From positions 1 to 10,082 of the IMG/VR virus record IMGVR_UViG_2917855067_000003: 10,082 bases of DNA, one strand, 5' to 3'. Origin of the DNA: a virus. Taxonomy: Duplodnaviria; Heunggongvirae; Uroviricota; Caudoviricetes. A program made the translations under genes and the position numbers. The notes under the pieces were generated by a model. That model saw only the letters and a list, made by a program, of their open reading frames with translations, was not told where the DNA came from and made no database searches. How positions within the stretch are numbered: the first letter of the stretch is position 1; each line of letters opens with the position of its first letter. Positions 1 through 10,082 of this stretch are shown here, in pieces.

Positions 1-1095
1 TTATGTTGCTACGGGTTCGTCGCATTTCGGTAGCCAGTCGCCGTAGCTTTCCTCTTTCAGCGACAGATTGGTTTGTATCCCCTGCTTAGTGTGCCGCTTC
101 TCATAATTCAGGCCGTACTCTTTCAGCATCATGGGCAGCCCCAGCCCGAACATTTTCAGGCTGAGTACGTTCCTGTACCCGTTAGCCTCCATATAGGCCA
201 GATACGCGTGATAGAGATATTTACGATAATTACGCGGGATGATGCTGGCATTCCCCATAAACATCCCGTTGGTCTGCGGGAGCATTTCCAGATAGCCGCA
301 AAAATCAAACGTAGGGTCAGCATCGCGCTTGATGCTGAGCGCCTCGTCGGAATTCTGCTGTGACTGGAGCAGTGCGCGGGCTGCCATCGGGTCGCTGAAC
401 TTCTGCATGAGCTGGCGCACAATCACGGCCAGCTCGCGCGCAATTTTATCCCTGAGCTGCGGGTCGCGTTCCTCCGGCGCAATTTGCTCCGGGAAGTGAA
501 TAATCACCCGGCGACGTGACACACCACCGCTGCGGTCGGTGAAGCGCATGGGGTTATTGTTCACTGCCAGAATCACCGCCGGAATGTGTGTTGAGTACGG
601 GTTCTGGTATTTCGGGTCAACCGAGACCGCATCGCCGCCGGTGATGGCCTTAAGCCCTGCGCCGTCACCGCTCCATTTTTCCTGGTCAGGCAGACGGATA
701 AGCGAGAAGCCAATCAGGGAGGCACGCTTGCGCGGGTCTTCCAGCGTGTCGATGTCGGCTGACGTGGCGTTATCTTCCCCGGCAAGCAATGTCGCGATTT
801 CAGCCAGAATACTTTTGCCACTCCCGCCGGGACCGGTCACTTCGAGAAAGAGCTGCCAGTCGTAACGGTTCGCCAGCACCATAAACAGCGCGGCCAGAAT
901 CACGTCGCGTTTTTGTGGATTTTTACCGGCTGCACGGTCGAGCCAGCGCCAGAAGTTCGGCGCGTGCGTCCCCAGCCGTTTCCCCTTCCACCGGCGGGGT
1001 AAAATCCACATCGCACAGCGTGCGCAGCCAGTGCGATTTGTGGTGCGGGCTGAATACGCCGCTTTGGGTATCGAGTACCCCGTTGCGAAAGCCAA
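1..1095 (-). CDS. alpha: P4 alpha-type primase/helicase, C-terminal segment (SF3/D5-like helicase and origin-binding part); homologous part is about 4..975, stop codon at 1..3
   Basis: ORF-track translation contains Walker A GPGGSGKS and the long C-terminal region typical of P4 alpha. It lies in a different frame from 923..2335 and overlaps it. The ATG at 1095 is an ORF-caller start, not necessarily a biological one. Confidence 0.8.
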   Translation of the reverse strand: MAFATGYSIPKAAYSARTTNRTGCARCAMWILPRRWKGKRLGTHAPNFWRWLDRAAGKNPQKRDVILAALFMVLANRYDWQLFLEVTGPGGSGKSILAEIATLLAGEDNATSADIDTLEDPRKRASLIGFSLIRLPDQEKWSGDGAGLKAITGGDAVSVDPKYQNPYSTHIPAVILAVNNNPMRFTDRSGGVSRRRVIIHFPEQIAPEERDPQLRDKIARELAVIVRQLMQKFSDPMAARALLQSQQNSDEALSIKRDADPTFDFCGYLEMLPQTNGMFMGNASIIPRNYRKYLYHAYLAYMEANGYRNVLSLKMFGLGLPMMLKEYGLNYEKRHTKQGIQTNLSLKEESYGDWLPKCDEPVAT

Positions 1096-2335
1096 TCAGA
1101 CGGCGCGCCGGTGTATCCTGCTGCGGAATAATCAGTTTCAGGGTCTCCACAACTGAGGCGATTTTCCCCGACGAGAACGGGGCGCGCAGACGCTGGAATA
1201 AGTCAGCCACATTCCGTGAAAAAGTGGCGACAGGGATATTTTTCCAGATGCCGTTTTCATAGCGGGACAGGAGCTGGCCGTTCGCATCCACTGCCAGCGC
1301 TTCGCCGTAATGCTCATGCACCCGCAAAGCCTTGTCGCTGGCGCTCATGGCGGTAAATTCCGCCTCGCTCATGGTATCAAACGGACTTTGCGCCGGTGGC
1401 CGGATGGCGTCATAAATCGCTTTGCGTGTGGCTTCCTCGCCGTACTGTATAAACGCATCATTCCAGTCACCGAATACCGGCGGCAGGGCAACAACGCCCT
1501 CACAGGCGTCTGCGGCCGCAGCGGCTTTACTCTGGCCGTCGCCGTTAAGGTCACGGTCGGCAGCGAGCACAATCTGACAGGCCGGGGACTTCTGACGGGC
1601 AAGGCTCGCCAGAGAAAGGAGGTTCACGGAGGACAGTGCTACCATGACGGTTTCCCCGGTCAGGTGATGCACGGTGAGTGCAGTCGCATACCCCTCTGCA
1701 ATCCACAGGCGTTTTCCGGCCTGTTTTTTCCCTTCGATGGTATGGCATGCTCCTTTTACCGCCCCGCCTTTCAGGGTGCGTTTGAGACCGTCAGAATTGA
1801 TAAGCTGAAGGTTAACCAGTGCGCCGGTATCGTCATACAGCGGGACAACCACATCACCGGCGCGGAACGTCACGCCGCCGGTTTTGTGTGTGGCCGACAG
1901 TACCGGACATTCCCGGTCGGGGAAACCCTTTCGGGTCAGGTAGGCGTTGCCGCTGGCCGGTCGGGTTTTCTCCATGAGCCTGACGGCCAGTGCGGCCGCC
2001 GCTTTGCGGTCAGCCTCCGTTTCAGCCTCTGCGGCCGCAATCACTTCCGGGGCAACCGGCGGCAGATTGCCGGTCACGGCGTTCACCTTCCCGGCGGCCT
2101 CTGAGGGAGTCACGCCAAACACTTTTTCTACCAGCTTAAGCCCGTCACCCGCGCCGCATTGATTGCAGAACCACGTCCCGCGCCCTTCTTTATCGTCAAA
2201 GCGGAAACGGTCAGAGCCGCCGCATACCGGGCAGGACTGATGGCGGTTTTTAATTACTTTCACACCCAGCGCAGGGAGAATGCGCGGCCAGTGGCCGCAC
2301 GCCTGTTTTACCGTTTCTGTTACGTTCATTTTCAT
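923..2335 (-). CDS. alpha: P4 alpha-type primase/helicase, N-terminal segment (zinc ribbon and primase domain); ends prematurely at 923 unless a frameshift is corrected
   Basis: Translation from MKMNVTETVKQ contains the zinc-ribbon motif CPVCGGSDRFRFDDKEGRGTWFCNQCG. The ATG at 2335..2333 is preferred over 2386 because AGGGAGA lies 9 nt upstream. The frame stops at 923 while the homology continues in another frame. Confidence 0.8.
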   Translation of the reverse strand: MKMNVTETVKQACGHWPRILPALGVKVIKNRHQSCPVCGGSDRFRFDDKEGRGTWFCNQCGAGDGLKLVEKVFGVTPSEAAGKVNAVTGNLPPVAPEVIAAAEAETEADRKAAAALAVRLMEKTRPASGNAYLTRKGFPDRECPVLSATHKTGGVTFRAGDVVVPLYDDTGALVNLQLINSDGLKRTLKGGAVKGACHTIEGKKQAGKRLWIAEGYATALTVHHLTGETVMVALSSVNLLSLASLARQKSPACQIVLAADRDLNGDGQSKAAAAADACEGVVALPPVFGDWNDAFIQYGEEATRKAIYDAIRPPAQSPFDTMSEAEFTAMSASDKALRVHEHYGEALAVDANGQLLSRYENGIWKNIPVATFSRNVADLFQRLRAPFSSGKIASVVETLKLIIPQQDTPARRLIGFRNGVLDTQSGVFSPHHKSHWLRTLCDVDFTPPVEGETAGDARAELLALARPCSR

Positions 2336-2349
2336 CGTTGTTTTCTCCC

Positions 2350-2670
2350 TCAGTGCAGTACCGGTGCGGTGATATGACGGGCGCAAAGCTCATCCATCAC
2401 GGCCAGCCCGAGAAAGGACAGCGACGGGGCAGCTTTCAGTGGTCCGACTTCCATTAAATCTTCCAGCAGGGCACAGGCAATCTGACGGCCTTTTTCCTCG
2501 CCGTGCTGGCGCAGGTAGAAGCCCTCCAGCTCGGCGGCAATGGCGCTTTCCAGCGCGTCGAGGGTGAGGTGCGGGTAGCGGTGCTGGCGTTCGCACAGGG
2601 TCAGCCATGCACAGGCCACTGCGCGACGATACAGCGCGGCGCGTAATACGGGCGGTAATGGCTTTTTCAT
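2350..2670 (-). CDS. hypothetical protein (106 aa), P4-like leftward operon, immediately upstream of alpha
   Basis: ORF with SD GGGGAGGG upstream of the ATG at 2670. Its start overlaps the stop of the preceding ORF (ATGA), and it ends 14 nt before the alpha start. Function not recognised. Confidence 0.6.
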
Positions 2671-2894
2671 ACGTTACCCTCCCCGGTAAGCCACTGCTGA
2701 TTGCAGCGTTCGACCACGCCGTCGAGCTGGGCGGTCATGAGGTAAATCACGGAGGTGAGCTGTAACTGCTGCGTCGGGTCACGACGAACGGTGGCGCAGT
2801 CCTGCACCTGCATCAGGTTGCCGACGAGCTGGCCGACGTTGCGCATATGCTCCAGACATTCGAGGTCACGGGCGGTAATGGTGGTGTGTCTCAT
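2667..2894 (-). CDS. hypothetical protein (75 aa), P4-like leftward operon
   Basis: ORF with SD GGAGGTG upstream. ATGA overlaps at both ends indicate translational coupling. Function not recognised. Confidence 0.55.
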
Positions 2895-3085
2895 GCGCGC
2901 ACCTCCGCAACCGGCAGACGGCCAGCGAACGAGAGGACGTAATCGCGAATGAGGGAAAGGCGTGCGGCGTGCTCATCACCGGCAACGGTGCGGAGCATAC
3001 AAATACGGGGGGTACGGTCTGCGCGACGAACAGCGGCAAACACAAAGACAAACTGCGGGTGTGACGGGGTGAGGGTCGTAGCCAT
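2891..3085 (-). CDS. hypothetical small protein (64 aa), first gene after the putative leader terminator
   Basis: ATG at 3085 is preceded by a near-consensus SD (AGGAGG, about 9 nt spacing). The same frame stays open up to 3442, but that extension crosses a terminator hairpin and lacks an SD, so the short form is preferred. Confidence 0.5.
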
Positions 3086-3288
3086 AAGGGCAACCTCCTG
3101 TGAATAGCGGTTATTGCCACCACCGGAGTTCCTACGCTCATGGGTGGTGACCCGAACGGGGGTAGGAATACCGGCTTCACAGAATACCGGCCAGCCCGAA
3201 AGCTGCCCCGCCCGGACCACCATTATCTGACAGGGGCTATGGAATAAGCACCACAGCCCGAAAAATGGGTGTGCCTGAGCAACGACGT

Positions 3289-3311
3289 AAAAAAAGACGC
3301 ATGGCGCGTCT
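3289..3311 (-). terminator. rho-independent terminator for leftward transcription (P4 timm-like position)
   Basis: On the minus strand: stem AGACGC / GCGTCT (plus 3295-3300 and 3306-3311), 5-nt loop, followed by a run of 7 U (plus-strand A-run at 3289-3295). Confidence 0.5.
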
Positions 3312-3367
3312 GTTGTCGCCTGTGAATTACACGGGTTCCTACGCCCGGCTGCCGATTTTGCGGCAGC
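3289..3367 (-). ncRNA. candidate small structured RNA (position analogous to the P4 CI / C4-type immunity RNA)
   Basis: About 350 nt lacks a convincing coding region between alpA/vis and the next SD-bearing ORF. The minus-strand transcript would start with a 7-bp hairpin (plus 3348-3354 / 3361-3367), contain further imperfect stems, and end at the terminator. A possible -10 (TATAGT, plus 3374-3379) lies just upstream. No homology check was possible. Confidence 0.25.
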
Positions 3368-3438
3368 GGGAAAACTATACCTGGAAACGGCGAAAAGAAG
3401 CAAGCCAGAAAAAGGGGCTGTTTGCTGAACGGTCATCA

Positions 3439-3705
3439 TCATGCGTCATAGCCCCGGTTACGTTCGGCAATGCGATCCGCCATCCATGCAGTGATTTCAG
3501 ACTGCGCCCACGCCACATTTTTTCCGCCGAGGGAGATTTGTTTCGGGAAGGCTTCCCGGCTGATGAGGTCGTAAATGGTCGAGCGGGACAGGCCGCACAG
3601 ATGCATCACTTCGGGCAGACGGATAAAGCGCTCGTGAACGGTATCAGAAACCGGCATCAGCGGCGCGGCAGGGGCAGAAGACGGGGAAGAAAAAGCAGTG
3701 TGCAT
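3439..3705 (-). CDS. alpA: AlpA/Vis-family helix-turn-helix regulator (88 aa), matching the size of P4 Vis
   Basis: Translation contains the AlpA-family signature ([47 protein letters not shown]). SD GAGG lies upstream of the ATG at 3705. Confidence 0.85.
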
Positions 3706-3766
3706 CGGGCTACCTCACAAAGTCCATACAGTGCCGGTCGTGTCCGTCCGGCTTCGGGTAGCTCCT

Positions 3767-3795
3767 TATTATGTCTATATTTTTCCTCAGGTCAT
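3767..3795 (-). promoter_or_regulatory. candidate sigma70-type promoter for the leftward alpA/vis operon
   Basis: Minus strand reads ATGACC, a 16-17 nt spacer, then CATAAT/ATAATA, about 55-60 nt upstream of the alpA ATG. The -35 is weak. Confidence 0.25.
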
Positions 3796-3834
3796 GTGAG
3801 ATTTTCGGGGAAACAAACATTGACTTTTCGCTCT

Positions 3835-3871
3835 GGCAAACAAAGGCAAACGCTGGCAAACATATGCAAAT
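3835..3871. promoter_or_regulatory. four direct repeats at exact 10-bp phasing (GGCAAAC x3 and TGCAAAT); candidate regulator binding array
   Basis: GGCAAAC at 3835-3841, 3845-3851 and 3855-3861; TGCAAAT at 3865-3871. They sit in the divergent control region between alpA/vis and sid. Confidence 0.4.
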
Positions 3872-3873
3872 CA

Positions 3874-3889
3874 CTGCATTACAATGCAG
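3874..3889. promoter_or_regulatory. perfect palindrome CTGCATT-AC-AATGCAG; candidate operator
   Basis: 7-bp inverted arms with a 2-bp spacer, directly after the phased repeats and before an AT-rich stretch. Confidence 0.4.
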
Positions 3890-3971
3890 CAATTTCTATT
3901 TCTTTTAGTTATATATTTTTCATTTTTAATCAAAATAAAGTCTAAATGCTATAACCAGAGCAAAACAGGAG

Positions 3972-4105
3972 GGTGAACAGTGGTGAACAGACGGTGAACA
4001 GTCAGACCCTCAACTATTCACCCTTTAACTTACTGTATTAATTATCTTTTTATTTAAGGTGAACAGTGGTGAATAGTTATAAGTAAAAAAATAAACGGTG
4101 AGTAA
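3972..4105. repeat. iteron array GGTGAACA(G), the reverse complement of the P4 type I iteron TGTTCACC; ori/crr-like alpha binding region
   Basis: GGTGAACAG at 3972-3980, 3982-3990, 3993-4001 and 4058-4066; GGTGAATAG at 4068-4076; inverted copy CTATTCACC at 4013-4021; degenerate GGTGAGTAA at 4097-4105. Spacing is 10-11 bp within clusters, and an AT-rich stretch (about 3890-3960) lies alongside. Confidence 0.7.
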
Positions 4106-4152
4106 GGTTTTCCTGCGACCTTTCTCTGGCCAGCCGGTTTTTAAGGTCTGTT

Positions 4153-4170
4153 TGTGCCAGCATTCTGACA
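4153..4170 (+). promoter_or_regulatory. Ogr/Delta box (TGT-N12-ACA) of a Psid-like late promoter
   Basis: TGT at 4153-4155 and ACA at 4168-4170 are separated by 12 nt. The dyad centre is about 80 nt upstream of the sid ATG, consistent with a -55 activator site and a short leader. A weak -10-like CAGAAT lies near 4205-4210. Confidence 0.45.
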
Positions 4171-4242
4171 ACGGCAATGAATCGTGTTGTTGTGCAGGAG
4201 GCGTCAGAATCATTTCAGGTTGAACACACGGAGAACCTGAAC

Positions 4243-4986
4243 ATGAAACCCGAACTCATTATCAAAGCCATGCAGACCGTTATCAGTAAACAGGATGAAG
4301 GCGCGGAACAACGCATTGCCGGTGCGCTGGCCGCACTTAACGAAGCAAAAGATGCACACACGGCCAGCATGGGTAAACTCAGCGACATTGAGGCTTCCAT
4401 TCAGCGTTGTGAGCAGGAACGACAGACCGCCCTCAGTGAAAGTGCACAGGCCGAACAGGACTGGCGCAGCCGCCTTCGAACTCTGCGCGGCAACCTCACT
4501 CCTGAACTGAAAGCTGAACACAGTAAACGTATCGCCAGCCGCGAACTGGCTGATGAGTTCACCGGTCTGATTACCGAGCTGGAGAAAGACAAAAGTCTCG
4601 CCATGCTTGGCGCATGCTCCTCCGGTACGGCTTATATCAGCGCCCATGAAAAAGCATTCACCACTTACGCCAACAGCGAATGGAAGAAGGTGCTGGCCGG
4701 TATCAGCCCCGCACTGTTACGTGCCTTCCTGTTGCGTATACGGTCGCTGGAAATGAGCGGAGAAACCTCATCGCGTGCGACCGCGACACGTGAGCTGGGT
4801 GATGCCCTGAATCTGCAGTCAGCCCTGTATCATTTTGATATGGAGCAGGAGCCGGTCCTGTCCGTAACGGGCATGAATCGCCCGGTCATAACCGGGGTTG
4901 ATATGGCGCTGTTAAGAAGCCCGGCCAGACGGATGAAGCTTGCCGCTGAACTGGCTGCAAAATCCCACGAACAGGCAGAGGGCTGA
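4243..4986 (+). CDS. sid: Sid-like capsid size determination (external scaffold) protein, 247 aa
   Basis: Assigned by position as first gene of the sid-delta-psu operon, by its charged, helix-rich composition, and by a length near P4 Sid (about 244 aa as I recall). Start at 4243 has SD GGAG 9 nt upstream; the ORF-track start at 4177 would lie inside the promoter. Confidence 0.6.
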   Translation: MKPELIIKAMQTVISKQDEGAEQRIAGALAALNEAKDAHTASMGKLSDIEASIQRCEQERQTALSESAQAEQDWRSRLRTLRGNLTPELKAEHSKRIASRELADEFTGLITELEKDKSLAMLGACSSGTAYISAHEKAFTTYANSEWKKVLAGISPALLRAFLLRIRSLEMSGETSSRATATRELGDALNLQSALYHFDMEQEPVLSVTGMNRPVITGVDMALLRSPARRMKLAAELAAKSHEQAEG

Positions 4987-4989
4987 ATT

Positions 4990-5229
4990 ATGTTTCACTG
5001 TCCGTTCTGCAAAAAGACCGCGCACGTCCGTACCAGCCGTTATCTGTCGGAAAACGTCAAACAGCGTTATCACCAGTGTACCAATATCGAATGTTCGGCC
5101 ACTTTCCGCACCATCGAGTCGGTTGACGGTGTGATACGTGCCGCACCGGAGAAACCTGACCCCACCCCGGTGACGCCGCTGCCGCCGCGTAAAGAACAGG
5201 GCTGCTACAGCTCGCCGTTCCGGCATTAA
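4990..5229 (+). CDS. delta: Ogr/Delta-family zinc-finger late-gene transcription activator (single-domain, 79 aa)
   Basis: Translation MFHCPFCKKTAHVRTSRY...YHQCTNIECSATF has the Ogr/Delta Cys4 arrangement (C4, C7, C30, C35). It starts 4 nt after the sid stop, with SD GAGGG upstream. Confidence 0.85.
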   Translation: MFHCPFCKKTAHVRTSRYLSENVKQRYHQCTNIECSATFRTIESVDGVIRAAPEKPDPTPVTPLPPRKEQGCYSSPFRH

Positions 5230-5244
5230 TCAGGAGAGAGACAC

Positions 5245-5811
5245 GTGACCACTATGACAATACAGCAGGCCTTTGAGGCCTGTCAGGCAAACAAAAACAC
5301 CTGGCTGACACGTAAAGCCGAACTGGCTGACCTTGAACTTGAATACCGTGAACAGCTCCTTGCTGGTGACGAACAAATCCCGCGCAAAATGCAGGATTTG
5401 CGCGACAATATCGACGTGAAAAAATGGGAGATTAATCAGGCCGCCGGTCGCTATATCCGCTCACATGAGGAGGTGCAGCACATCAGCATCCGCAACCGGC
5501 TCTATGACTTTATGCAGCAGCACGGCGCGGAGCTGGCCGCCACGCTGGCGCCTGAATTGATGGGGTATAATGAACAGCTTCCCGTAGTAAAACAGAGCGC
5601 CATGCAGCATTCGGTTGATTATCTGCGTGAAGCCCTGTCAGTGTGGCTGGCCGCAGGTGACAAAATTAATTATTCCGCGCAGGACAGCGACATTTTAACG
5701 GCCATCGGATTCAGGCCTGATGCGGCTTCGCGGGATGATAATCGAGAGAAATTCACCCCGGCACAGAACCTGATTTACACCCGCCGACGTGCAGAACTGG
5801 TCGCACGGTAG
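5245..5811 (+). CDS. psu: Psu (polarity suppression protein; Rho inhibitor / capsid decoration), 188 aa
   Basis: Translation (..IQQAFEACQANKNTWL.., ..NQAAGRYIRSHEEVQHISIRNRL.., ..KINYSAQDSDILTAIGFRPDA..) closely resembles P4 Psu as I recall it. A GTG start at 5245 sits 8 nt after SD GGAGAGAG; the alternative ATG at 5254 is too far from the SD. Confidence 0.9.
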   Translation: MTTMTIQQAFEACQANKNTWLTRKAELADLELEYREQLLAGDEQIPRKMQDLRDNIDVKKWEINQAAGRYIRSHEEVQHISIRNRLYDFMQQHGAELAATLAPELMGYNEQLPVVKQSAMQHSVDYLREALSVWLAAGDKINYSAQDSDILTAIGFRPDAASRDDNREKFTPAQNLIYTRRRAELVAR

Positions 5812-5857
5812 CACGCGAAAAAATCCCCGAAAATTCCGCTATTTTTCCTGAAAAAAG

Positions 5858-5884
5858 CCATGCATCCATAAGGTGCATGGTTTT
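5858..5884 (+). terminator. candidate rho-independent terminator of the sid-delta-psu operon
   Basis: Stem CCATGCATCC / GGTGCATGG (one wobble, 4-nt loop) followed by TTTT at 5881-5884, about 47 nt after the psu stop. Confidence 0.45.
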
Positions 5885-5984
5885 GCATGCAAATCCCCGT
5901 ATTTTATTTCCCCCACCACGCCAGTACCGGCGCGGCCTGAGCCGGTTCATGCACCTGCATTAAAAGTGACCTCTTAAGCGGGCA

Positions 5985-6003
5985 GGCGTGGCGGGGAGAG
6001 CAT
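5985..6003. other. cos-like site (resembles the 19-nt P2/P4 cohesive end)
   Basis: GGCGTGGCGGGGAGAGCAT matches GGCGAGGCGGGGAAAGCAC at 16 of 19 positions. That P2/P4 sequence is recalled from memory and not verified. The site is downstream of psu, where P4 has cos. Confidence 0.4.
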
Positions 6004-6269
6004 TGCGCGCTGGAATAATAATTAATTATTTATTTTCTCGCTCTGTGTTTGTCATTGATGAGTGGCAATTCGTTGACATGCTGGAGAGATATAATGCTGT
6101 TTAAAAGGAAAGAAGCACTTCTGAGGCTTTTAGGTTAGAGGGGAAGTTAAGGCCGCCTTGAGGCGGCGAAAATTAGTCATTTTGGGTATCGAGGAGTAAT
6201 ATTAGGCTGAATGCCACATGCTCCTGAATTAGAACCTTGAGTGCGAGTTGCTACATAAATAAATGGAGC

Positions 6270-6950
6270 TTAAAAATGATTAATCAAGATTTGATTTTTT
6301 TTAATTGCTCGTCTACTCCAGTGCTCTGTGATGTTTTGAGTGAAGTCGGGACGAACTATTTTTGCTCTAAAGTCCACTGCTTCAAGAGATTCTACTCTCA
6401 AATATATTCCTTCTGATATTTCATCGCTGAATTTTGATTTTTTTATATAAGAAGATAACTTGTTTAGTTCAAAGAAACCTTCGTCAAGAAAAGGAACGCA
6501 ATGAAGGTTTGCATTTGATATTATTTCGTTTCTTTGAGGAAGTGGTAAAAATATTTTTCTTTTCTTATCGAATACATCAAATGCTAAAAAATAGTCAGGT
6601 AAGCGGGTGTAGTGAATAGAATGTTTCGCATAACACCATTCCCCAAATATAATGTATTGGTCTCGAATGTAGTCAAAAAGGTTGTCGCGGTTGTAATTTA
6701 ACCAGTCAGGAAGCATTTTCCATTGGCCATTAAAAGGTTGATGTAAAAAAGAACCCCTATTTTGAAGGAGTAAGTCTGCATTACCATTAAAGGAAATGCC
6801 TAGATTAGCTCCGTCAATTTTCTCTTCTATTATGGTTTTTTTAGTTGAAAGCAATAATCGTTCTTTATCTGAAATGACCTTGTCATCCCTGACGTTAGGA
6901 TGGTAAAAAATATGTGGAGTGGACGGGAATTTATATAGTTCATCTTCCAT
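6270..6950 (-). CDS. Rnl2-type RNA-ligase-like nucleotidyltransferase (standalone adenylyltransferase domain, about 226 aa)
   Basis: Translation carries ligase motifs in the right order and spacing: motif I EEKIDGAN (KxDG), motif III FGEW, motif IIIa FDVFD, motif IV EGIYLR, motif V RAKIVR. ATG at 6950 has SD AGGAAG 9 nt upstream; the ORF-track GTG at 6977 has no SD. It is AT-rich and overlaps the upstream gene by 11 nt. Confidence 0.7.
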   Translation of the reverse strand: MEDELYKFPSTPHIFYHPNVRDDKVISDKERLLLSTKKTIIEEKIDGANLGISFNGNADLLLQNRGSFLHQPFNGQWKMLPDWLNYNRDNLFDYIRDQYIIFGEWCYAKHSIHYTRLPDYFLAFDVFDKKRKIFLPLPQRNEIISNANLHCVPFLDEGFFELNKLSSYIKKSKFSDEISEGIYLRVESLEAVDFRAKIVRPDFTQNITEHWSRRAIKKNQILINHF

Positions 6951-7479
6951 TTGGAAACTTCCTATTATATGTATCACTTATGAGTTTTTCGTCAGCAAAA
7001 TGAACCGTTATGCCTACATCAGCAAGAGATTCTTTCCAGCCCCACCATTTACTATCAGTTGCTTGAAAAATAGGCGGTTTGTCTACGTGTGCGTATGACG
7101 TGGCTACAAATTTTCTATCCGATAAATCAAAGTTTGTCAGGCCTTCATGTACAGGGAACTCCTCATAGCTAGTTTCGGTTTTTGTAATTCTTACGATGTT
7201 TTTATCAGGGAATTTCCATTGGTTAGTGTAAATCCATTTCATAAATTTATCACCAACGCCAGGGGCTCCACTCATGCTTAAATTTGAGCGATACTCTTCA
7301 ACTATTTCTTGTGCTTCATCAATAACTAACCCACCATTTGCAATTGCCTTTTCTATTATTTCAACACACTCTAAAACACAGCTTAGAATATCATCTGGAA
7401 TGTTTTTTATATCTGTGTGCATATTAGCTGTAACAGCAACATTTGTATCAATTAAAAAAGCAGCAGGTAATTTATTCAT
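6940..7479 (-). CDS. PIN-like domain protein (putative nuclease), 179 aa
   Basis: N-terminal AAFLIDTNVAV resembles the first PIN strand with its conserved Asp; further acidic positions (DEAQE, ATDSKW, ISDTY) fit the PIN pattern. SD GAAGG upstream; start overlaps the ATPase stop (ATGA). The domain call is by eye. Confidence 0.6.
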   Translation of the reverse strand: MNKLPAAFLIDTNVAVTANMHTDIKNIPDDILSCVLECVEIIEKAIANGGLVIDEAQEIVEEYRSNLSMSGAPGVGDKFMKWIYTNQWKFPDKNIVRITKTETSYEEFPVHEGLTNFDLSDRKFVATSYAHVDKPPIFQATDSKWWGWKESLADVGITVHFADEKLISDTYNRKFPNGR

Positions 7480-8861
7480 TTAGATGTACCTTCTTTTTCT
7501 TTTATTCTTCTTTTTAACGCTGATTTTGCTTGCTCTGTAATGTCTGTTAATTCATCACCAAAGAAATTATCTGGCCAGTTGAGGATATTTCCAAATGTAT
7601 CGATTTGCAACGGTGTTAATTTTGGGGTTGAAGATGAAATGTCAGAGAAGTACGCGGAAACTTCCTCGGATTTTATTTTGTCTTCTGCTATTCTCCTTTG
7701 CAGTCTGCGAAGGAAATGCTCTGAGTGAGTTTCTATAATTAGCTGTATGCCTCTTGATTTTCCATTTTCTCGTGAACGGATAACATCGATCATAACATCA
7801 GCAAGCACTGATTGTGCTTTTGGGTGTAAATGAATTTCGGGTTGTTCCATCAAAATTATTGAGCCTGGTTGAGCGTAAAAGCATTGTACTAGAACTGGAA
7901 GAACCTGAGAAACCCCAAACCCAACATCTGGAAGGTCTACCCACTGTTTAGAGCCTTTAGTTTTAACTTTGACTTCATATTCTTGACGATGTTCTGAAAT
8001 TGCTTTTACAGAAAAACTATCAATTAAGTCCATTTGTTTTAATTTTTCAGCGATGATTTCTTCTAATGGTTTATTTTTCTTTTTATAATCAAGGCCGATT
8101 CTTCTTTCTTTTGATGAAAGAATGGCGGAAATTGCATTTTCACCTGCATAACCTACGCTTTCTGGTGAAATTCCAGTCCATGGATATAATCGTTCAGGCT
8201 TATTTCTCATTGGCCCTAAGTAACATACTGAACGGAATAGCTTTTCATGCATTAGATTGATGTCTTGCACAAAATCAGCATTTTGATGGTAAGCTACGAC
8301 TTCCTCAGGGAAACCATAAAATCTAACTACATCTTTTATCGCCCAAACCCTACCCTTCTGTCGAGTTAGAGTGAAATTGTTAGTTTTGATTTTATAATTT
8401 GACTTAGCGTCACGAACAAGTCCTATAGATACATCATCTTTTTCTTTCTGATAGAATGTATATGAGAATCCATTGACATATAAGCTATTATTCTCAGCAT
8501 TAAAAGATATCTCAGATTTAAAATGGCATATTTTCGATAAGGATATAATGCTGTCTAATGATGATTTAGAGTATAATTCATCTATTGACCAAGAGTACTC
8601 AAATGAGATGTTCTTGTTAACGTCTCTCATGTTAACCATGTCTTGAAATGAGCCCAATTGTACTGCTGAGTTTTTACCTCCTGGGTAGAATGGGGTTTTT
8701 CTATCAGATGATTCAACCGTTTGTTTAAGCATCATGAGAAGCTGGCCAATACTAGATTTACCAGAGCTATTTGTTCCAAAGAAAAGAGTGATAGGTGACA
8801 TTTTGATTTCACCTGTATCAGTCCAAACCTTAAAATTTTCTACTTTTAATGTTTTAAACAT
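7476..8861 (-). CDS. ABC-type ATPase (AAA_15/AAA_21, OLD/RecF-like), 461 aa
   Basis: Walker A GTNSSGKSS near the N-terminus, Walker B region ILMEQPEIHLHP and H-loop ETHSEHF near the C-terminus, with a long insertion between, as in defence-associated ABC ATPases. SD AAGGA upstream; ATG is only 3 nt after the int stop. Confidence 0.85.
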   Translation of the reverse strand: MFKTLKVENFKVWTDTGEIKMSPITLFFGTNSSGKSSIGQLLMMLKQTVESSDRKTPFYPGGKNSAVQLGSFQDMVNMRDVNKNISFEYSWSIDELYSKSSLDSIISLSKICHFKSEISFNAENNSLYVNGFSYTFYQKEKDDVSIGLVRDAKSNYKIKTNNFTLTRQKGRVWAIKDVVRFYGFPEEVVAYHQNADFVQDINLMHEKLFRSVCYLGPMRNKPERLYPWTGISPESVGYAGENAISAILSSKERRIGLDYKKKNKPLEEIIAEKLKQMDLIDSFSVKAISEHRQEYEVKVKTKGSKQWVDLPDVGFGVSQVLPVLVQCFYAQPGSIILMEQPEIHLHPKAQSVLADVMIDVIRSRENGKSRGIQLIIETHSEHFLRRLQRRIAEDKIKSEEVSAYFSDISSSTPKLTPLQIDTFGNILNWPDNFFGDELTDITEQAKSALKRRIKEKEGTSK

Positions 8862-8864
8862 TTC

Positions 8865-10082
8865 TTATCCTTTGCTTTTAGATTTTATGATGGAAGCATT
8901 TTGGATTTCATCACCCCACCAAGCTAATAAATCACTACGTTGTTTTAAATAATTTGCACGGTTATATGCTCTTCTGACTTCATTTTTATCTGTATGTGCC
9001 AAAGATGATTCAATTATATCAGCGTTGAAACCAGCTTCATTCATAGTTGTACTCGCGATAGAACGTAATCCATGTGCGACTAATTTACCACCATAACCTA
9101 TTCGCTTCAAAGCGGCATTAGCCGTCTGGCTATTCATAGGTTGCTGTGGATCATTTCTACTTGGAAAAATATATTCTCTATGTGCACTGATTGGCCTCAT
9201 TACTTCCAGAATCTCTAATGCTTGAGTAGAAAGAGGTACGATGTGTTCCCGTTTTGCCTTCATCCGTTCGGCTGGGATCGTCCAGAGTTTGGCATTGAGA
9301 TCGATCTCTGCCCATCGTGTACCTGAAGCCTCAGAAGGTCGCACGAGAGTCAGAAGCTGCCATTCAATAAGACAGCGAGTCGAAACAGACAGATTCGACA
9401 TCACCAAAGAGCGCATTAGCTTCGGCAATTCTTCCGGCCGAAGGGTCGGCATGTTTTGCTTTTTTGGTTTCTCAAATGCCATTCCGACACCTGATGCCGG
9501 GTTTGCATCAATCAGGCCAGTGTTGACGGCGTAGATCATGATTTCGTTAATACGTTGTACCAGGCGGCGAACCGTCTCTAATGCGCCACGTGCTTTGATT
9601 GGCTCCAATGCTTCAACTATCGTTCTGGCCTTAATTTCCTGAACAGGTATTGCGCCTATTGCGGGGAACACGTCCTTATCTAAAGAGCGCCATATATCTT
9701 TCGCGTAGTCTTCAGTGACGCTTTTGCTCTTCATTTTGAACCAGTTGGCGGCCACAGTTGAGAAAATGCTATCCAGCTCAATCTGACGCTGTTCTGATGC
9801 CTGCTCTTGTTGCTGTTGCGGATCCATACCCTGCGCGAGTGTGGTTAAGTGCTGGTCGCGTATCTGACGAGCTGCTGCGAGAGTAAGGGCAGGGTATGAG
9901 CCGAGACTCAAATTAGTTCGGCTGCCACTGACCGGACGTTGATAGCGGAAGCGCCAGAGTTTTTTACCGGTGGTTTTGACGAGCAAGAACAGGCCGTCAC
10001 CATCATGAAGGGTGAAGTCTTTTTCCCGAGGTTTGGCTTTAAGGATTTCGTTGTTAGTGAGGGGGCGTGTGAGGCGCGCCAT
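8865..10082 (-). CDS. int: P4-type tyrosine integrase (405 aa)
   Basis: N-terminus MARLTRPLTNNEILKAKPREKDFTLHDGDGLFLLVKTTGKKLWRFRYQ is the P4-integrase arm-binding domain; C-terminus has HGLRSIAST and RRAYNRANY (catalytic Tyr). The start codon is the last 3 nt of the window. Confidence 0.95.
   Translation of the reverse strand: MARLTRPLTNNEILKAKPREKDFTLHDGDGLFLLVKTTGKKLWRFRYQRPVSGSRTNLSLGSYPALTLAAARQIRDQHLTTLAQGMDPQQQQEQASEQRQIELDSIFSTVAANWFKMKSKSVTEDYAKDIWRSLDKDVFPAIGAIPVQEIKARTIVEALEPIKARGALETVRRLVQRINEIMIYAVNTGLIDANPASGVGMAFEKPKKQNMPTLRPEELPKLMRSLVMSNLSVSTRCLIEWQLLTLVRPSEASGTRWAEIDLNAKLWTIPAERMKAKREHIVPLSTQALEILEVMRPISAHREYIFPSRNDPQQPMNSQTANAALKRIGYGGKLVAHGLRSIASTTMNEAGFNADIIESSLAHTDKNEVRRAYNRANYLKQRSDLLAWWGDEIQNASIIKSKSKG

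Follow-up and report, generated by a model that had tools for sequence, protein, structure and literature searches.

Probable co-inheritance of the integrase 3′ end with the defence cassette in a P4-like satellite at ssrA

The stretch of viral DNA considered here, positions 1 to 10,082 of IMG/VR record IMGVR_UViG_2917855067_000003 (the window, meaning this whole stretch of 10,082 nucleotides, nt), corresponds, in reverse complement, to a segment of contig PDIE01000013 from Escherichia sp. E3356 (GCA_004745295.1). It covers the int-proximal half of a P4-like phage satellite that is integrated at ssrA, and its end at position 10082 is the start of the integrase gene int. This gene (8865..10082, minus strand) is an intact open reading frame (ORF) for a P4-family tyrosine integrase of 405 amino acids (aa) and abuts a cassette consisting of a HEC-03-type ATPase gene, the gene of its 179-aa partner and an RNA ligase gene. 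Comparison with related islands indicates that the int of the window is a chimera of at least three pieces, of which the last ~258 nt appear to belong historically to the cassette. It is very likely that the last part of int is co-inherited with the defence cassette and that cassettes are swapped by crossovers inside int.

The comparison set comprised 80 loci with relatives of the window integrase, one genome per species, of which 68 full-length genes were codon-aligned; islands with the same cargo were found via the ATPase protein, and recombination was assessed by max-chi2, informative-site and nearest-neighbour tests. The first piece of the window gene, int nt 1–735 (9348..10082, minus strand; G+C at third codon positions, GC3, ~0.53), is closest to two islands with unrelated cargo, L004 from an Enterobacteriaceae metagenome-assembled genome and L001 from Trabulsiella. 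Divergence from both is ~5% in this piece and 21–26% beyond it, and the max-chi2 breakpoint falls at int nt 735 (window 9348) against either of them. L004 and L001 are in turn 98% identical to each other up to nt ~660 and 78% identical thereafter, so that among the three islands the 5′ parts of int are 95–98% identical, the genes part at nt 660–735 and the cargo is unrelated (a type II restriction-modification-like pair on the opposite strand in L004 and a SIR2/ThsA-like pair in L001, neither HEC-03-like). The second piece, int nt 736–960 (9123..9347, minus strand), is at most ~88% identical to any locus and contains a step in GC3. The third, int nt 961–1218 (8865..9122, minus strand; GC3 ~0.2), encodes the HxxR motif, the following His, the Tyr nucleophile and the C-terminal tail.

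The affinity of the third piece becomes apparent in the comparison with an island of Klebsiella pneumoniae that carries the same cargo. Nucleotide identity between the two islands is 0.768 in the host flank, 0.869 in int nt 1–735 and 0.849 in int nt 736–960; it reaches 0.953 in int nt 961–1218, remains high through the ATPase (0.911), the 179-aa partner (0.931) and the RNA ligase (0.893), and is 0.687 from the ligase stop to the psu stop, 0.762 in psu and 0.783 in delta. Sites at which the window agrees with L004 and not with Klebsiella, set against sites at which it agrees with Klebsiella and not with L004, number 77:18, 11:15 and 5:49 in the three successive pieces, a split that is highly unlikely to arise by chance (Fisher p = 4e-17; 0 of 500 permutations as extreme). 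Same-cargo islands of Pantoea are 0.60–0.69 identical to the window in the 5′ part of int and 0.76–0.80 in its last 300 nt, the latter being the level of the cargo. The first-pass annotation had proposed, from base composition, an exchange of the cassette through recombination inside int; the exchange itself is supported by these comparative identities, while composition alone turned out not to be valid evidence for it. The int gene is clearly not uniformly identical across islands with unrelated cargo. Among deeper HEC-03 relatives, the int 3′ end and junction of an E. coli island (L099, 66% aa identity) are not specifically related to those of the window, and the linkage between int and cargo is therefore visible only in the closer clade. 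A megablast search of 5426 complete E. coli genomes recovered only the 3′ end of int, at ~83% identity, and did not find the cargo.

The same relation between int and cargo is seen across the integrase family, where pairs were compared among 65 loci and 14 of the 2080 locus pairs share junction-proximal cargo. In pairs with different cargo whose int nt 1–720 are at least 0.9 identical (n = 41), identity declines toward the stop codon through 0.93, 0.92, 0.90, 0.87, 0.83, 0.80 and 0.70. Same-cargo pairs with a similar 5′ part of int hold 0.95–0.97 and show no decay, and two same-cargo pairs whose 5′ parts have diverged climb to 0.97–1.00, from nt ~712 in L001/L026 and from nt ~877 in L063/L070. 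When the nearest neighbour is determined segment by segment from 5′ to 3′, it carries the same junction-proximal cargo in 4, 4, 10 and 14 of 22 cases. Furthermore, pairwise identity in int nt 961–1185 is uncorrelated with that in the other segments (rho 0.05–0.14; nt 361–720 and 721–960 correlate with rho 0.77). In 72 close pairs, breakpoints were placed between nt 285 and 1125, all but two of them within nt 519–1125. Nucleotide conservation across the family is flat (0.6–0.8) along int to nt ~1170, that is, until the last ~45 nt; rate heterogeneity was considered as a source of the 3′ divergence and rejected, because conservation is flat over this length and same-cargo pairs do not decay. These comparisons indicate that crossovers scatter over int nt ~520–1125 and that cargo linkage rises toward the stop codon.

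The proposed course of events starts from the stretch between cos and int, the known defence hotspot of these satellites, which in the window houses the HEC-03-type ATPase/effector pair together with the RNA ligase. Cassettes in the hotspot would be replaced via homologous recombination between P4-like elements, with one crossover in the 3′ half of int, where a nucleotide identity of 70–80% across the family would make a homology arm, and the other on the cos/psu side, at a boundary that for the window and Klebsiella would lie just past the ligase stop. Since crossovers are scattered over nt ~520–1125, stretches of int nearer the stop would travel with the cargo more often. The last ~250 nt, with the HxxR motif, the Tyr nucleophile, the C-terminal tail and a stop codon embedded in the ribosome-binding site (RBS) of the cargo, would thus act as part of the cassette. 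In the window, int nt 1–735 would derive from one lineage and nt 961–1218 would have arrived or stayed with the HEC-03 cassette, with a third piece between them; the AT-rich synonymous composition of the 3′ part matches that of the AT-rich cargo pool. Each swap would create a chimeric integrase whose arm-binding and core-binding domains are the resident's and whose HxxR, His, Tyr and C-terminal tail come from the cassette; with later crossovers, the first active-site residues would also stay the resident's.

Such chimeras probably remain active, judging from the intact ORF and motifs of the window integrase. All three Pfam domains are recognised, namely Arm-DNA-bind_3 (PF13356), Phage_int_M (PF22022) and Phage_integrase (PF00589), and the arm-binding, core-binding and catalytic domains as well as the R...K...HxxR...H...Y residues are all intact despite the mosaic. 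On the minus strand, the respective motifs are RPSEA (9327–9341), MKAKREH (9243–9263), HGLRS (9060–9074), AHTD (8988–8999) and RRAYNRANY (8949–8975).

Several points weigh against cassette exchange through crossovers in int, or limit how far it can be traced. The middle segment of int has no relative above 90% identity, so neither the number nor the direction of the events can be reconstructed, and in each pair either partner could be the recombinant. The whole int gene (87%) is also closer to the Klebsiella island than psu is (76%), which permits an alternative history of whole-int transfer and later conversion that would lead to an identical outcome. On the psu side the boundary is ill-defined, as identity drops as soon as the ligase gene has ended, 266 nt short of cos. 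This 266-nt spacer (5985–6270) is 55–74% identical to the Klebsiella island, as against ~91% for the cargo, and the psu-side edge of the shared block is therefore the ligase stop and not cos. With one genome per species among the loci, there are few same-cargo pairs (14). Promoter-like sites in the scans described below occur at chance level. Lastly, the GC3 step (nt ~846) lies between the identity breakpoints (~735 and ~960) and coincides with neither; being family-wide, off the breakpoints and untied to cargo G+C, it neither dates nor proves an exchange.

The junction between int and cargo reads AAAGGA-TAA-GAA-ATG (8859..8873, minus strand). The 3-nt spacing described in the first-pass annotation was confirmed, with the int stop TAA at 8865–8867, GAA at 8862–8864 and the cargo ATG at 8859–8861. 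The last int codons, AAA-GGA (Lys-Gly), supply the Shine-Dalgarno sequence AAGGA of the ATPase gene (8868–8872), 6 nt upstream of its ATG, and in an alignment the arrangement AGGA-TAA-(G)AA/G-ATG is kept in the window and in the Klebsiella and Pantoea same-cargo islands. Tight spacing is common in the family, as 16 of 28 same-strand first cargo genes begin between −8 and +12 nt from the int stop. In the window, int, ATPase, partner and ligase follow one another on one strand without interruption, the first two genes separated by 3 nt, the second and third overlapping by 4 nt and the last two overlapping as well, and a terminator scan found none between int and the cargo. By its sequence the int-ATPase pair thus has the makings of an operon with translational coupling, with both genes on the same strand, no terminator, a tight start and the Shine-Dalgarno sequence inside int. 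Given this uninterrupted array, transcription from the int promoter would have to continue into the cargo genes, and ATPase translation could couple to termination of int. That the cargo is either co-transcribed with int or driven from a promoter inside int, as had been suggested at first pass, is a sound dichotomy, and an additional promoter inside int is possible.

A different reading of the same region would have the low G+C of the int 3′ part selected as a promoter and/or an H-NS-type regulatory region, with the cargo expressed mainly from an int-embedded promoter and not by read-through; this is a possibility, though on balance a doubtful one. A promoter outside int would not fit into the 3-nt gap, and the sole match in the window to the extended −10 pattern TGnTATAAT, the candidate TGATATAAT (9013..9021, minus strand), lies on the cargo strand 152 nt upstream of the cargo ATG. 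It can be treated as a lead only: at least one match occurs in 49 of 200 shuffles, about a quarter, and its TATAAT is kept in Klebsiella and lost in Pantoea. More generally, scans for sigma-70 promoters and terminators over int and cargo gave counts equal to those of shuffled sequences. Int 3′ GC3 is slightly lower where same-strand cargo abuts int (0.30 vs 0.34–0.37; p 0.017, phylogeny uncorrected), but the GC3 drop is equally present with opposite-strand cargo (0.34). Between window and Klebsiella, int nt 961–1218 (95.3%) is more alike than the cargo (89–93%), which speaks for this reading. Published cloning data bear on both sides of the question. The cloned native-promoter fragments of same-orientation systems listed by Rousset et al. 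(2022, PMC9122126, Table S2A) begin inside the int 3′ end and hold ~90 nt of it plus the spacer; one system was active in this form, whereas PARIS-1 with its short int 3′ fragment was inactive unless driven from Ptet. In both cloned systems the spacer after the int stop is longer than the 3 nt of the window.

The mosaic might instead reflect gene conversion among coexisting P4-family integrase genes, the cargo having moved by another route such as the joining of cos ends or illegitimate recombination precisely at the stop codon of int, a scenario that appears improbable. It is in keeping with a reported incongruence between the phylogeny of int and those of other P4 core genes (PMC8628076), with mosaicism also in the 5′ third of the gene, where L030 and L047 are 60–70% identical to the window in nt 1–360 and 80–88% beyond, and with the middle segment of the window int, which has no partner linked to any cargo. 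It is at odds with the identity block that runs at the same level from int nt ~961 across the stop into the cargo, and likewise in L001/L026 and L063/L070, with a cargo linkage that climbs monotonically toward the stop, and with the Shine-Dalgarno–stop–ATG junction common to same-cargo islands. Conversion independent of cargo may well be the source of the mosaicism in the 5′ and middle parts, but it leaves the 3′ block unexplained.

The base composition of int, from which the exchange had originally been proposed, tells a separate story. The counts given in the first-pass annotation are exact (G+C in 21/60 positions at 9001–9060, 27/60 at 9601–9660 and 34/60 at 9841–9900), and the 3′ part of int (8865–9240; G+C 0.372) does resemble the cargo (0.349), the rest of int (0.510) being nearer the backbone (0.546 in sid–psu and 0.587 on the alpha side). 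The rise described along int from 3′ to 5′ holds as to its direction, but its shape is a single step and not a smooth gradient. GC3 drops from 0.53 to 0.23 at int codon ~281 (window ~9240, int nt ~846), just after the conserved Lys-hairpin motif, and the step is confined to synonymous sites, with G+C at first and second codon positions nearly unchanged. The best GC3 change-point, at codon 281, has a chi2 of 33.1, which was reached in 0 of 5000 permutations of third positions (maximum 23.4). The composition is also not peculiar to this island: GC3 drops in almost all 67 related integrases, from a mean of ~0.48 up to codon 280 to ~0.30 after it, with change-points clustering at codons 278–282, ~300 and ~320, in relatives spanning Enterobacteriaceae, Erwiniaceae, Yersiniaceae and Morganellaceae. 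The cargo adjacent to int is almost always AT-rich (mean 0.35). A tracking of cargo G+C by int 3′ GC3 was looked for and rejected (rho 0.15, p 0.23), as was a tracking of the host flank (rho 0.02), and the drop occurs regardless of the strand of the first cargo gene (0.30–0.37 with same-strand, 0.34 with opposite-strand genes). In the absence of such correlations, the step cannot be read as the signature of the latest swap; it is a standing trait of this int lineage and no scar of the last event. Its presence in nearly all relatives of four families, its independence of cargo orientation and its lack of correlation with cargo G+C are what would be expected if the AT-rich 3′ part were an ancestral trait inherited vertically, with no recombination inside int, but this explanation, right on composition, is wrong on the absence of recombination and very unlikely as a whole, given the mosaic of identities (77:18 against 5:49, and the block identities) and the family-wide decoupling of nt 961–1185 from the rest of int and its linkage to cargo.

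If cassettes are indeed exchanged through crossovers in int, a more far-reaching proposal, put forward only tentatively, concerns the nature of the unit that is exchanged. In the ssrA-type lineage, the swappable unit might be the last quarter of int, encoding the catalytic C-terminal sub-domain, plus the stop/RBS junction and the defence genes, so that each cassette would bring its own homology arm and its own expression or coupling signals, every swap would yield a chimeric integrase, and defence would be tied to a weak autoregulated int promoter that keeps toxic systems such as HEC-03 low. The toxicity of HEC-03 on induction (Payne et al., 2024) fits a need for weak expression, which is circumstantial. 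Were such a composite module real, it would represent a general design rule for satellites that shuffle immunity genes.

With regard to the satellite as a whole, int lies 184 nt downstream of the transfer-messenger RNA (tmRNA) gene ssrA, adjoining smpB, in the source contig. The P4-like core set of int, psu, delta, sid, alpA, ash/epsilon and alpha was found in the same order as in P4. Psu, the integrase domains and primase/D5 domains were matched by Pfam on the window, and Ogr_Delta, Phage_AlpA, Phage_ASH and DUF5375 were called on the source contig. The alpha primase/helicase gene (window 1–2386, minus strand) is split by a frameshift near 977–984 into two overlapping ORFs, with P4 alpha residues 1–453 aligning in frame −2 and residues 451–775 in frame −3; the split reflects either a replication defect of the satellite or an indel in the draft assembly. 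An intact P4-type RNA immunity region (3140–3380, minus strand) was identified with Rfam above the gathering score and comprises the C4 antisense RNA (3140–3227, 78 bits), isrK (3290–3367) and the c4-a1b1 target (3328–3380), all on the minus strand. The int/cargo region gave zero Rfam matches.

On the plus strand, sid and delta are accompanied by psu (5245..5811; Pfam Psu, E 4.9e-88), the conserved flank at the far side of the hotspot. The 19-mer GGCGTGGCGGGGAGAGCAT (5985..6003, plus strand) resembles cos, with 3 mismatches to the P4 cos end (the P4 left end), a match found in 0 of 200 shuffles. This site is the psu-side edge of the hotspot, and G+C falls directly beyond it, where an AT-rich block of three overlapping minus-strand genes follows and then int. 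A GC-rich hairpin, GCCGCC-TTGA-GGCGGC, was observed at ~6153–6168 in the spacer between the cos-like site and the ligase stop.

The first cargo gene (7476..8861, minus strand) encodes a HEC-03 ABC-type ATPase of 461 aa with the Pfam domains AAA_15, AAA_21 and DUF3696, and matches the PADLOC model HEC-03B (E 1.3e-124, covering 456 of 458 model positions). The second (6940..7479, minus strand), whose start overlaps the ATPase stop by 4 nt, encodes the 179-aa partner, which has no Pfam match and corresponds to the PADLOC model HEC-03A (E 2e-25); by the account of Payne et al. (2024) it would be the PIN-type effector. The two adjacent proteins thus match both HEC-03 models at full length. The third gene (6270..6977, minus strand) overlaps the second and encodes an RNA ligase (PF09414). 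HEC-03 has been described as a two-gene defence system of an ATPase and a PIN-type effector that is experimentally validated, requires both genes and is toxic on induction (Payne et al., 2024, bioRxiv 10.1101/2024.01.29.577857). By similarity to the profile models, the cargo of the window is predicted to be a HEC-03-type defence pair, defence activity being reported for a homologue (Payne et al., 2024).

RNA ligase genes follow the ATPase and partner genes in L082, L090, L099 and L102 as well, in Klebsiella, Pantoea, E. coli (66% aa) and Prodigiosinella (68% aa). The ligase may represent a conserved third HEC-03 component, possibly one that repairs RNA or acts as an antidote against the PIN RNase. 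Same-cargo islands differ in the state of int: K. pneumoniae carries the same cassette at ssrA, its ATPase protein being 96% identical and its 3-nt junction the same, and Pantoea agglomerans carries it with an 88% identical ATPase, a 2-nt gap and a disrupted int.

Some further contexts of the cassette were observed in passing. In L090–L096, from Pantoea agglomerans and metagenome contigs, int was not called in L090, and in the short metagenome contigs it is broken up into ORFs of 80 and 256 aa; L090 has a 701-aa ORF and a transposase where psu would follow, and no psu. The cassette, together with the int 3′ end, thus persists in seemingly decayed or rearranged Pantoea islands. At the Prodigiosinella HEC-03 locus, no int gene was called alongside. 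The same arrangement of int and cargo adjoins MobA/MobL and AlpA genes in L084 and a P2-type prophage integrase and CI repressor in L100, which points to insertion in tandem or in alternative contexts.

In enterobacteria, P4-like satellites constitute a major and fast-turning reservoir of anti-phage systems, and the route of cassette exchange is left open in the published work considered here. A crossover on the int side that lies inside the coding sequence would provide the homologous-recombination model with a concrete, testable footprint and would explain why integrase trees disagree with those of other core genes. It would also imply that integrase typing on the whole gene mixes two histories, with the 5′ part following the att site and host and the 3′ part following the cargo. 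It further suggests that defence genes abutting int so tightly rely on the transcription and translation of int. For prediction or capture of hotspot cargo, the int 3′ end could provide a handle.

Compared with the system of Payne et al. (2024), the window cassette likewise consists of an ABC ATPase and a small partner in adjacent, overlapping genes. It differs in lying in a P4 hotspot with no Hma system around it and in having the PF09414 RNA ligase as a third gene, as do all homologous loci examined; the ligase goes unmentioned in the HEC-03 paper, which describes the two-gene ATPase and PIN system.

Canonical P4 (NC_001609) resembles the window in that int is transcribed toward an AT-rich non-essential cargo (G+C 0.359), with the first cargo gene, cII (then beta and gop), on the int strand and cos at the far edge. 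In contrast to the window, its int is of another lineage and encodes 440 aa, and cII starts 66 nt past the int stop and not 3 nt, which leaves room for a promoter of its own. The P4 int (L098, 2607–3926) has normal GC3 to about codon 400, followed by an AT-rich C-terminal extension of ~40 codons (G+C 0.22), as if cargo-like DNA started inside its last codons.

C-terminal swapping in polymorphic toxins follows the same principle of module displacement. By analogy, the effector/immunity arrays of the type VI secretion system in Vibrio cholerae (PMC5361080) appear to be built on it as well, with a conserved upstream coding sequence as the homology arm and a 3′ end that co-varies with the downstream module. 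The machinery and gene family are other ones there; in the satellite, the part of the conserved gene is played by the site-specific recombinase of the element itself, so that each swap would create a chimeric enzyme.

The closest parallel remains the published P4 hotspot between psu/cos and int, for which AT-rich defence cargo and rapid turnover have been documented (Rousset et al., 2022, PMC9122126; Moura de Sousa et al., 2026, PMC13586616), including very rapid swapping of cassettes (Moura de Sousa et al., 2026). Homologous recombination in the conserved flank has been proposed in this work as part of the swap (PMC9122126; PMC13586616). The window shares with these elements the type, the site beside cos, AT-rich defence cargo in either orientation, and the occurrence of unrelated systems in closely related elements. 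In the more recent study, int was left out of the core similarity and phylogeny (Moura de Sousa et al., 2026, NAR, PMC13586616), and a term search of its text returned neither "breakpoint" nor "GC content"; likewise, a term search of Rousset et al. (2022) and of the 2021 P4 survey found no statement on breakpoints inside int, within the open-access literature and with a description elsewhere being possible. As far as these sources go, the published hotspot work treats int as a whole-gene boundary, whereas here the boundary on the int side is resolved inside the gene. The finding is therefore a sub-genic refinement of the known psu–int defence hotspot, as expected from recombination in the conserved flank, and not a new system.

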